A stretch of DNA of 34,582 nt from a virus, in UHGV virus genome UHGV-0129090. One strand, 5' to 3'. Position 1 is the stretch's first letter; the number at the start of each line of letters is the position of its first letter. The notes beneath the pieces were generated by a model. That model did no database searches. It was given only the letters and a program-made list of their open reading frames with translations, and was not told the origin of the DNA. The position numbers and the translations under genes were made by a program. This document shows, piece after piece, positions 720 through 2,839 of the stretch.

Positions 720-1013
720 CTAAATGCCACCAATCAAGACCATTAAGATCCTGAAAATTGGTTCTAATGGTAACTGTATTAGTGCGATCCCTAACCAGTC
801 GGCAAAAGGGATAATTATATAAGAATATAAAATAATTAGCGTTAAAACCATCCCCAGCACATTACGCCAATGAATACTATTTCTCTCTACTTCTATTTTG
901 TTTAGTTCTATTTGTCCATCTTCTTTTTTTACTTCTACTTCATGCTCTACTATCTTCGTTTTAGTAAAATAACCTACGGCGACCTTTACTAATTCTACTA
1001 TGACATTAATCAT
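720..1013 (-). CDS. Small membrane protein, possible holin (3-TM, GTA/HK97-cluster type)
   Basis: 97 aa. A charged N-terminal segment (HEVEVKKEDGQIELNKIEVERNS) is followed by an HWRN motif and two to three hydrophobic spans (VLGMVLTLIILYSYIIIPF, IALIQLPL, ILMVLIGGI). It is the last gene before attL and overlaps the upstream gene by 4 nt. The family assignment is from memory only. Confidence 0.35.
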   Translation of the reverse strand: MINVIVELVKVAVGYFTKTKIVEHEVEVKKEDGQIELNKIEVERNSIHWRNVLGMVLTLIILYSYIIIPFADWLGIALIQLPLEPIFRILMVLIGGI

Positions 1014-1330
1014 TTTTTTACTCCTATTACGTATTGGAAGAATTTTCTACCCTTTACACTTAGGAAGTGAGAGCCTAATAGAACTACTTCAAATGGAACA
1101 CCCTTATAAGTCCATGTAAGAGTATCGCCATCTTTCCATTGATCTTGTTTATAGCAAAATACTACATTCATATAAGACAATATATCCGGTGCAAAGGCTT
1201 TTATATTCTTTTTTATTTTTTTATTATCTAGCTGAAAAAGTTCGAACTGGTAGGAGTTACCAAAAGGGGTAACTCCATCAAGTGTAATTTCTGATACTTC
1301 TTCGCCATAGTGATGATCTTCTAAATTCAT
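1010..1330 (-). CDS. Hypothetical protein (106 aa)
   Basis: The ORF is in tight operon spacing: a 3-nt gap to the upstream gene and a 4-nt overlap with the downstream gene. I recognised no motif. Confidence 0.6.
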   Translation of the reverse strand: MNLEDHHYGEEVSEITLDGVTPFGNSYQFELFQLDNKKIKKNIKAFAPDILSYMNVVFCYKQDQWKDGDTLTWTYKGVPFEVVLLGSHFLSVKGRKFFQYVIGVKK

Positions 1331-1333
1331 TTA

Positions 1334-1912
1334 TTATCCCCTCTTTAGTTTAAAGTGTCCTTTGATGCCGCTAACGATAACTGCTACTCCCTTTTCTGCT
1401 TCTGCGTAGAAGTCGTAGATTAGTTTTCGCTTCTTCGTTTCACGTACACCAATAACACGCTTTGTTTTCGTCTTTGTATCTTTCTTTGTAGTATCGATTA
1501 GATATTTTTTACCATTCTCAACTACTACGCGATATTTACCCTTCTCTATATTACTTTTAAGCTGGGGTATGTTCCCCTGTTTTGTTAGACGTGCTGCGGA
1601 GGTTGGAATAAATTTCTTTAGTGGATCTGGATGTACTATTACATCGTAAAGGTATCTAGCTTGAATATCTTTAATCATGATAGTACAGCTTACACTAGTA
1701 CCGGACTTGTTATAAAAGTACAGTACAGCGTTCTTTGTAAAAGGTACAGGACCACGATCAATTGCAGCACTCATATCATCACGCATCTTTTTAGATAGTT
1801 GGCGTGTTTGCTTGATTAGCTCGTCCTGTAGTTGATTACCATAGAGTTTTCCTTGTTGATTTAGATAGCCATTTACTGACTTTAGACCCGTGACGGTTGC
1901 ATTAATTTTCAT
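1334..1912 (-). CDS. Hypothetical protein (192 aa); weak resemblance to gpZ/HK97-gp10-type tail completion proteins
   Basis: The N-terminus ([21 protein letters not shown]...) resembles the openings of gpZ/gp10-like proteins. The C-terminal part is Lys-rich ([23 protein letters not shown]). It overlaps the upstream gene by 4 nt. The function is uncertain. Confidence 0.3.
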
Positions 1913-2346
1913 GTTAGAGATCCTATTAGTCCTTTTACTATTTTAAATAATCGTAATCCATCGGCATCATTTGCGGGTAGTTTGGCTTTTACTAGAATCG
2001 CTTTGTTAAGGTTATCCGGTAATAGTCCACAAGTAGCGATTAAGGCAGTCTCTACTACTGCCGCCTGATTAGCAGTTGGGAAGCACCACAAAATATACTT
2101 TTTATATGTTTCGCCTGCTTCAATACGGGCATTTACTGTTTTACTACTGGAAGTGTAATCTACCCAATTTGATTGTTTTGTACTGGTCTTTAGTTTTTTA
2201 ACGTCTTTTACACCTTTGTAAATTTGTTTAAGTCCCACATACCAGCCGCCATTATCAAACTGAATAAGATATACAAATGCGGCATAATTACCTGAATCTA
2301 TATCTTTAATATCCCATGTTTCGGGATCGTACATTTCCCACATCAT
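1909..2346 (-). CDS. SegE-type GIY-YIG-like domain protein (145 aa from the MMWEMY start)
   Basis: The pattern [23 protein letters not shown] ... [31 protein letters not shown] ... AVVETALI matches my memory of the phage Seg-like GIY-YIG N-terminal domain (YxYxI..dG.wYvG.K, W..Y.gSSk, E at the end). There is no obvious C-terminal DNA-binding domain. I moved the start to the ATG at 2346 because an AAGGG lies 8 nt upstream. The longer ORF to 2397 would overlap the endolysin start. Confidence 0.4.
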
Positions 2347-2386
2347 ATAAATACCCTTAATTATTACTATTATTATAAGGTTATTT

Positions 2387-2839
2387 ATGAATATCAAAGA
2401 AAGATTAATACAGTACGAAGGAAGTAAAGAATATCAACGAGTACGCGGATACTACCGACAAGATAAATTTTACCCATATGTGGATACCGAAGGGTACGGC
2501 ACAATCGGTTATGGACATAAAATCCTAGATAGTGAAATTGAGAAGTACAAAAACGGTATCAGTGCTATCGACGCAGATTTACTACTGGCTTGGGATATTG
2601 ACCGTACTGTAAAGGATGTTAAAACATTAGGCTTGGACTTGCCGCAAGATTGGCAAGATTTCTTAGTCATCATGACCTTTCAGTTAGGTTTAGGTGGAGT
2701 TAAGAAGTTTAGGAAGATGTTAGCGGCATTAGACCGCAAAGACTGGAAAGAAGCAATTAGACAAGCAAAGGATAGCCTCTGGCATCGCCAGACACCTAAC
2801 CGCCTTGATGATATGGTTAAACAATTAGTAAACAAGTAA
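2387..2839 (+). CDS. Endolysin, T4-lysozyme-like (GH24 muramidase)
   Basis: The 150-aa protein carries [10 protein letters not shown]...[15 protein letters not shown], the classic E...D...T(I)GYGH lysozyme signature. An AAGG lies upstream of the ATG. The gene is followed by a strong hairpin plus T-run. It is one of only two credible plus-strand phage genes. Confidence 0.85.

Follow-up and report, generated by a model that had tools for sequence, protein, structure and literature searches.

The four genes at the attL end of a yegD prophage of Escherichia coli as a probable late lysis and tail-completion block

The analysis concerned UHGV virus genome UHGV-0129090, a stretch of 34,582 nucleotides (the window) that was found to be Escherichia coli chromosome carrying a prophage in yegD, and in particular four adjoining minus-strand genes at the left (attL) end of that prophage. 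From sequence alone, the original prediction had given two readings of these genes: an unusual lysis and late cassette, or a cargo module at the end of the prophage. Comparative analysis indicated that these genes form the distal end of a late lysis and tail-completion unit which is conserved in a lineage of temperate Enterobacterales siphophages, and that they are not defence cargo, a reading to which a probability of about 0.82 was assigned. The features of the region are listed below with their coordinates in the window and strand; protein lengths are given in amino acids (aa).

666..672, no strand: attL core ACTGTTC, left prophage/yegD junction, placed from the sequence and the end of host homology
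720..1013, minus: 97-aa membrane protein, probable holin (PF11351 and phrog_3427 similarity, hydropathy)
1010..1330, minus: 106-aa soluble small beta-barrel protein, specific to the phage lineage, always between the tail-completion and holin genes
1334..1912, minus: 192-aa very basic protein (isoelectric point 10.1), probable tail completion protein of the gpZ / HK97 gp10 / 80alpha gp51 class, phrog_1924 branch
1909..2346, minus: 145-aa stand-alone Seg-type GIY-YIG core (Pfam SegE_GIY-YIG), first gene of the minus-strand unit
2347..2386, no strand: divergent intergenic region of 40 base pairs (bp), candidate divergent promoter region
2387..2839, plus: 150-aa soluble endolysin of the T4 lysozyme type (Pfam Phage_lysozyme, 3.4e-10), inverted relative to the rest of the unit
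2845..2871, no strand: bidirectional intrinsic-terminator hairpin AAGGGGC-loop-GCCCCTT, flanked by an A-run and a T-run and situated between the 3' end of the lysozyme gene and the 88-aa gene
2867..3133, minus: 88-aa protein, candidate lysis accessory, with the architecture of Mu gp25 (releasin, DUF2730) and XhlA: an N-terminal transmembrane (TM) helix plus an acidic coiled coil in the cytoplasm; its gene invariably lies directly upstream of that for lysozyme

Structure of the block

The ORF (open reading frame) list and the sequence confirmed four minus-strand ORFs at 720-1013 (97 aa), 1010-1330 (106 aa), 1334-1912 (192 aa) and 1909-2346 (145 aa). The last of these has 145 aa when counted from its ATG, and the ORF that starts at a TTG has 162 aa and reaches 2397. 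The tight spacing described earlier was recovered: ATGA-type overlaps of 4 nucleotides (nt) occupy 1909-1912 and 1010-1013, and 3 nt (1331-1333) separate the 106-aa and 192-aa genes. Also recovered was the distance of 40 bp (2347-2386) between the divergent start codons of the GIY-YIG gene and the lysozyme gene (2387-2839, plus strand). The block is terminal in the prophage, as had been proposed: yegD homology ends at 672, the attachment (att) core occupies 666-672, and 47 bp separate it from the stop codon of the 97-aa gene. The gene calls of RefSeq/PGAP agree with these ORFs in two E. coli genomes that carry near-identical prophages. Judged by their sequences, the four ORFs are real genes, as they are conserved in more than 85 loci and three of them gave ratios of nonsynonymous to synonymous substitution rates (dN/dS) of 0.05-0.15.

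Conservation of the block and position of the variable genes

All eight relatives found in IMG/VR through the 192-aa protein keep the order 88-aa TM/coiled-coil protein, lysozyme (reversed), GIY-YIG, 192-aa, 106-aa and 97-aa protein. Identities of the block in these relatives were 37-87% and fall to 37-50%, which is the range of the tail proteins in the same contigs. Five more distant chromosomal loci, from Pantoea agglomerans, Salmonella enterica, Mangrovibacter, Serratia marcescens and one Logan contig, also keep all six genes; the lysozyme gene is there on the same strand as the others, and all six genes abut or overlap. A survey made with the GIY-YIG gene yielded 80 viral contigs, with the full six-gene order in 78 and the distal genes lacking in 2. 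The dN/dS range given above applies to the GIY-YIG, 192-aa and 106-aa genes compared with three relatives; for the 97-aa gene the synonymous rate was saturated, hence no ratio was obtained. The block showed no compositional break.

The patchy presence that is typical of cargo was not seen, the block being invariant among otherwise syntenic relatives. Variable DNA lies beyond the 97-aa gene. There is none in the window, where 673-719 (47 bp) leads directly to the att core, and none in the Salmonella locus. Elsewhere this slot holds one to five unrelated genes, which encode a KAP-type P-loop NTPase, HNH-like, DUF2806 and GTPase or GTPase-like proteins, membrane proteins and a second TM/coiled-coil protein (in the relatives, L009:9161-10468, L010:9167-10509, L007:9181-10059, L037:11273-16064 and L042:11292-14063). 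Since the block is invariant and the variation is confined to the far side of the 97-aa gene, the block belongs to the core of the phage, and the cargo slot adjoins it and is empty here.

Probable lysis proteins

The lysozyme has no signal or SAR (signal-anchor-release) segment and no hydrophobic window, and it therefore needs a holin. The 97-aa protein consists of a charged or amphipathic N-terminal half, whose helix is amphipathic and stays below the hydropathy threshold, and a hydrophobic C-terminal half of 48 residues (50-97), which is enough for two TM spans. Of the charged head and two to three TM spans described originally, the head and two spans were thus recovered, and a third span was not seen above threshold. 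The motif QIELNKIE..WR precedes the two C-terminal TM helices. The window protein matched Pfam PF11351 (GTA_holin_3TM) with an E-value of 0.069 and 14.1 bits, under the gathering score of 24.8, and phrog_3427, labelled holin, with an E-value of 0.001. PF11351, and no other Pfam family, was matched by all ten members of the 97-aa family examined, each below threshold (best E-value 1.4e-4). Ten of ten environmental viral proteins picked through the peptide QIELNKIE scored above the PF11351 threshold, and alignment of the 97-aa profile with these ten bona fide PF11351 proteins in hhalign gave a probability of 97.2% (E-value 3e-11, 69 columns). Members of PF11351 act as holins in RcGTA and in ICP1 (TeaA) (10.1101/790493). 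The 97-aa protein is likely a short, divergent holin of the PF11351 type; the profile-profile link and the two-TM holin layout of the sequence speak for the holin that had been proposed.

The holin-like gene is mosaic. The protein encoded at 720-1013 shares 61% identity with its counterpart in the Salmonella locus but only 48% with the one from a close relative, although the 106-aa proteins of that relative and of the window are 86% identical (L004:8900-9193, L039:10918-11214); these identities point to allele exchange at this gene.

The 88-aa protein gave 17.9 bits against DUF2730 (Pfam PF10805), below the cut-off of 24.9. Within its family, DUF2730 was matched by 10 of 24 members and XhlA by 8 of 24, all below threshold and amid generic coiled-coil families, and weak DUF2730 matches are also present in the precomputed annotations of the relatives. 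Among active phages, DUF2730 was found only in Mu-like ones, sometimes together with cytoplasmic endolysins of unknown dependence (PMC9239132). A lipobox scan gave no spanin candidate near the cassette.

Probable tail completion protein

The best fold match of the predicted 192-aa structure was the HK97 gp10-family protein of the 80alpha/SaPI1 neck (80alpha gp51, PDB 9mu2 chain P). The model shows a long bent N-terminal helix, a beta hairpin or insertion and a C-terminal helix, and this predicted fold agrees with the description of gp51 and gpZ in 10.1101/2024.12.10.627806. Direct sequence searches gave less: the 51 members of the family had no Pfam match, with PF06763 (Minor_tail_Z) and PF04883 among the profiles searched, and in PHROGs they gave noise, phrog_1924 appearing in 3 of 51. 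No significant alignment to the single lambda gpZ sequence was obtained, and a search of PDB sequences with the 192-aa profile returned nothing useful. An exhaustive profile search with the family yielded 82 representatives. Among 40 weaker, roughly full-length matches that were scanned, 34 matched phrog_1924 (minor tail protein), 11 matched phrog_27 (tail completion or Neck1 protein) and 5 matched Pfam Minor_tail_Z. Aligned in hhalign, these distant relatives and the 192-aa family gave 99.8% through the motif IDRPxPFT...IQA.YL...P...RL.K.GNI, and gp49 of Dinoroseobacter phage R4C aligned to the family at 91.8%.

The 192-aa gene lies outside the neck module, about 10 kb downstream of the tube gene and past the lysozyme gene. 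The canonical neck before the tube gene holds just an FII-like protein, itself of 106 aa, and a 149-aa unknown, so the Z/U-type slot is vacant there. The 149-aa protein had no similarity to the R4C tail terminator, and a search of PDB sequences with it gave nothing useful. Genes of phrog_1924 are also found outside the neck module in unrelated phages, just after the lysis genes and/or directly upstream of terS (Citrobacter phage phiNP, L046; Pseudomonas phage vB_Pae_U8, L047; Cronusviruses, L044 and L045), and the displacement of the 192-aa gene is therefore typical of this branch. On the strength of the family links and the modelled fold, the 192-aa protein is probably a tail completion protein; the phrog_1924 and phrog_27 relationships, like the fold match, favour the displaced gpZ-like tail factor of the original prediction.

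GIY-YIG nuclease and small beta-barrel protein

The Seg-type GIY-YIG assignment made earlier held, with 60.8 bits (cut-off 25) and an E-value of 1.9e-16 for Pfam SegE_GIY-YIG (PF19835). Residues Y26, Y36, G38, K40, W61, Y64, S67-K69, E99 and N114 are invariant among the window protein, nine relatives and a 256-aa T4-type Seg protein, and the canonical Arg position is taken by Lys/Arg at +8/+9, which leaves this one catalytic residue uncertain. The core motif FVY...YxG.K...W..Y.SSK...E...N is common to T4-type Seg proteins, and identity to T4-like Seg proteins is about 30% and limited to the core. When the four proteins were compared by tblastn with 50,697 isolated phages, the sole match was that of the GIY-YIG core to T4-like Seg genes; in a search of PDB sequences the GIY-YIG protein matched no chain. 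The lack of a DNA-binding tail was also borne out, as the protein ends about 25 residues after the core and the T4-type Seg protein has about 130 more. In size, the 145-aa protein resembles T4 endonuclease II and other stand-alone GIY-YIG enzymes.

The GIY-YIG gene occupies the same position in 85 of the 85 loci surveyed, has a dN/dS of 0.06-0.09, and its stop codon overlaps the start of the 192-aa gene. Fixation in the lineage, purifying selection and translational overlap are the behaviour of a domesticated enzyme and not of a mobile homing gene. We infer from these sequence features that the protein would be a domesticated and active nuclease of the Seg type, whose role is late and not that of homing.

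The model of the 106-aa protein of the block is a confident small beta-barrel, and conserved residues are H7, P22, N25, M54, N55, W73, K93 and G94. A search of BFVD with this model gave no match at an E-value of 0.001 or lower. Two identities were considered and dropped. For a PilZ receptor of cyclic di-GMP the split beta-barrel fold fits, but the protein is without the RxxxR motif (R95 being its sole Arg) and without [D/N]xSxxG; for a displaced tail terminator, the 106-aa profile had no similarity to the R4C tail terminator.

Inversion of the endolysin gene and the intergenic regions

In the survey of 85 loci plus the window, the lysozyme gene was inverted in 54 loci and co-oriented with, and abutting, the GIY-YIG gene in 31. 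The two orientations are intermixed and not monophyletic on a tree of the GIY-YIG and 192-aa proteins; the lysozyme tree separates them cleanly into its two deepest clades. This pattern fits one old inversion of the endolysin gene followed by the module exchange that is usual in temperate phages.

The putative terminator hairpin between the 88-aa gene and the lysozyme 3' end is kept in all eight close relatives, and an equivalent hairpin with a T-run lies 3' of the 88-aa gene in four of the five co-oriented relatives. Because the hairpin stands at the same place in the co-oriented relatives, the ancestral unit would have been terminator, lysozyme, GIY-YIG, 192-aa, 106-aa and 97-aa genes.

The 40-bp divergent region contains mirror-image ribosome-binding regions (ATAAATACCCTTA / TAAGGTTATTTAT), an AT-rich centre and -10-like hexamers. 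The minus strand has a sigma-70-like promoter match, TTGATA-17-AATAAT, at 2397-2369; matches of this kind are no more numerous than chance allows. In all loci of the inverted type, the spacer of 35-62 bp keeps a palindrome formed by the mirror-image ribosome-binding regions of the lysozyme and GIY-YIG genes (ATAAATACC...GGTATTTAT), and lineage-specific variants occur on both of its arms (L049-L128, around 3960-4010). The pairing register of the palindrome was specific, yet covariation was not above the shuffle control, and a reading of the palindrome as an RNA hairpin is unsupported beyond its conservation. The palindrome may be an operator, a pair of overlapping promoters or a relic of the inversion.

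In the circular form of the genome (673-722 joined to 33801-33850), the stop codon of the 97-aa gene would lie 93 nt from the start of int, with both genes on one strand, and this 93-nt joint showed no terminator-like site. For the joined attP arms a hairpin of -30 kcal/mol is predicted, which takes in the ribosome-binding site of int.

Proposed mechanism

The ancestral unit would have comprised a terminator, an endolysin, a GIY-YIG nuclease, a tail completion protein, a small beta-barrel protein and a holin, placed after the 88-aa protein gene that ends the operon of tail genes. On the branch to which this prophage belongs, a single inversion affected just the endolysin gene, so that it now ends at the old terminator, which would work both ways, and the other four genes would be controlled from the 40-bp divergent region with its palindrome. 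The 192-aa basic protein would be added to finished tails late in infection, as are 80alpha gp51, lambda gpZ and SPP1 gp16.1. The 97-aa holin would build up in the inner membrane and at its trigger time let the soluble lysozyme reach the wall. The GIY-YIG core would work late as a domesticated, non-homing nuclease, and the 106-aa barrel may be an accessory of assembly or lysis.

It is decidedly unlikely that the tail-less nuclease and the 106-aa barrel, both strictly conserved, together provide a new function of the late phase, linked to lysis or to the delivery of DNA. The nuclease may in that event be released or activated at the end of the cycle and destroy host or competitor DNA, or it may process the genome end that is contacted by the tail completion protein. 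In the same unlikely scheme, the conserved mirror-image start regions of the inverted-type phages could serve for symmetric control and tie expression of the endolysin to that of the holin unit.

Alternative explanations

The second of the two original readings was that of a cargo or defence module, in which a nuclease-like protein and a membrane effector, expressed from the lysogen, abort or exclude other phages. The end position beside attL suits it, a nuclease with a small membrane protein recalls some abortive-infection pairs, a sigma-70-like promoter match stands just upstream of the block, and a terminator separates the block from the tail operon. It fails on synteny, on divergence at the rate of tail genes, on purifying selection and on the results of PADLOC, in which the 97-aa and 192-aa proteins had no match, the 106-aa protein had a chance-level match, and the GIY-YIG protein matched a generic homing-endonuclease model (HEase) alone. 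The truly variable genes sit past the 97-aa gene, two of the four proteins have homologues with late functions (the holin and tail completion families), and in relatives with a co-oriented endolysin gene the block abuts that gene translationally. Comparative genomics has already largely refuted this reading, which is very improbable. The first reading, of a lysis and late cassette, was essentially right, given the conserved order with the endolysin gene and the relationships to holin and tail completion families, and the block is now largely accounted for as an ordinary late module. An active DNA switch, with the endolysin gene on a segment that inverts between both orientations, would account for the abundance of both states (54 and 31 loci), their mixture on the GIY-YIG and 192-aa tree, the palindromes at both borders of the segment and the serine recombinase encoded by the phage. 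It deserves hardly any credence, because the two clean and deeply separated lysozyme clades speak for one old event with module exchange, the junctions differ between the states (overlapping genes in one, a 35-62-bp spacer in the other), and no long inverted repeats flank the endolysin gene.

Within the late unit, the assignment of two genes was weighed separately. The 88-aa TM/coiled-coil protein might be the true holin, and the 97-aa protein would then act as antiholin or in some other membrane role, such as superinfection exclusion or control of DNA entry; the 88-aa gene always directly adjoins the lysozyme gene, three genes lie between the lysozyme and 97-aa genes, and weak matches to the lysis-associated XhlA, Holin_LLH and DUF2730 were obtained. 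Those matches are below threshold and stand among others to generic coiled-coil families, Mu gp25 as the prototype of DUF2730 does not function as a holin (PMC9239132), and it is the 97-aa family that has a specific profile-level tie to a holin family and the usual two-TM layout, which makes the exchange of roles quite unlikely. The GIY-YIG gene might also be selfish, a Seg-type homing endonuclease inserted between the endolysin and tail-completion genes and tolerated with no benefit to the phage. This is likewise unlikely, though the least so of the alternatives considered here. The nearest characterised relatives are the T4-type Seg homing endonucleases, and homing endonuclease is the label in both PADLOC and PHROGs. 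Yet the protein is without a DNA-binding domain, its gene is found at a single position in every locus surveyed and not sporadically, its catalytic residues are invariant over deep divergence under the low dN/dS given above, and its stop codon overlaps the start of the next gene.

Other features of the prophage

The N-terminal part of yegD occupies 2-676 of the window and its C-terminal part follows after about 33850. The element that splits the gene has 33.2 kb and 36-41% G+C, and a second ACTGTTC heptamer marks the attR side at 33844-33850. The limit of host homology at 672 was obtained by comparison with about 5,400 complete E. coli genomes. As a whole, the prophage (673-33850) has about 38% G+C and the host about 50%. 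A near-identical prophage was present in just 2 of 5,426 complete E. coli genomes (the strains of NZ_CM151386 and NZ_CM135810 are lysogens), and relatives are spread across Enterobacter, Citrobacter, Klebsiella, Serratia, Pantoea and Salmonella. A blastn search with the region found no related phage among isolated phages, and an Rfam search of the window gave no match. yegD looks like a recurrent integration site, as other E. coli strains carry a different element at the same point (L036, NZ_CP010117.1 601498-604575), with unrelated small hypothetical genes and an identical junction of 78 nt.

The element is a prophage of the siphophage type. It encodes a terminase, a W-like adaptor, a portal protein, a 620-aa capsid protein, the FII-like 106-aa protein and the 149-aa unknown, followed by a tube-fibre fusion, a tube protein, chaperones, a tape measure (9347-11545), Dit, DUF2163 and DUF6950 proteins and a J/megatron-like tip protein of 1100 aa. 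A large serine recombinase of 532 aa is encoded at the opposite end (32206-33804, minus strand). The 1233-aa protein at 12810-16511 (minus strand) matches phrog_158 over residues 1-144, the major-tail-protein family of the adjacent 152-aa tube protein (12293-12751, minus strand), and its remaining part holds tail-fibre domains and a chaperone domain, Peptidase_S74. It resembles a fusion of tube subunit and fibre and could place fibres on the tail tube. The lone ORF of the window with a lipoprotein signal and lipobox (MKHLFALAVLATATITTGC...) is at 26587-26967 (minus strand), in the early region and far from the lysis genes, and its product may be an exclusion lipoprotein rather than a spanin.

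Significance

For a group of Enterobacterales prophages that is widespread yet unannotated, these results settle a question of annotation. All these proteins are hypothetical in the public records, generic labels for GIY-YIG and glycoside hydrolase aside, and two of them can now be named, as a probable holin and a probable tail completion protein. Position at the end of a prophage does not by itself mark cargo, and the true variable slot has been located, with defence-type genes (KAP NTPase, HNH, GTPase) in it in relatives. Of interest are the apparent domestication of a Seg-type GIY-YIG core as a fixed late gene, the pairing of a DUF2730-like protein with a soluble endolysin outside Mu-like phages, and an inversion of the endolysin gene alone that persists in about two thirds of the lineage. 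Current understanding is not overturned by any of these points.

Comparison with known systems

Compared with the T4-type Seg homing endonucleases (SegA-G), which have about 220-260 aa and a C-terminal DNA-binding domain, the GIY-YIG protein has 145 aa without that domain and is encoded by a vertically inherited, fixed core gene and not a sporadic one. The 88-aa protein is like the Mu gp25 releasin (DUF2730) in its N-terminal TM helix, its acidic cytoplasmic coiled coil, its size (about 90-100 aa in the releasin) and the position of its gene beside the endolysin gene; it differs in scoring below the Pfam threshold, and here the phage is non-transposable and the endolysin soluble and not of the SAR type.

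The 97-aa protein shares with the PF11351 holins (RcGTA holin, TeaA of Vibrio phage ICP1) the QIELNKIE..WR(P) motif followed by two hydrophobic helices, and a unit with a soluble endolysin. Those holins have about 130-140 aa, and the 97-aa protein is without their N-terminal glycine-rich or amphipathic third and their C-terminal LGLGGLRT.EK tail; in addition, three non-lysis genes stand here between the endolysin and holin genes. Unlike the genes of other tail completion proteins (lambda gpZ, HK97 gp10, SPP1 gp16.1, 80alpha gp51), the 192-aa gene lies at the far end of the late region, between the nuclease and holin genes.

In Cronusvirus the phrog_1924 gene is the last before terS, whereas in this prophage its place is within the lysis unit, next to attP and int. 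The Cronusvirus records have no GIY-YIG or 106-aa homologue annotated next to that gene, and no search was made for one. The prophage shares with Cronusvirus and Dinoroseobacter phage R4C a phrog_1924 gene that sits apart from the neck genes and the order terminase, adaptor, portal, capsid protein of about 620 aa, stopper, tube, tape measure, Dit, hub, peptidase and megatron, and the overall layout of the lineage resembles that of Cronusvirus/R4C and of phages like gene transfer agents.

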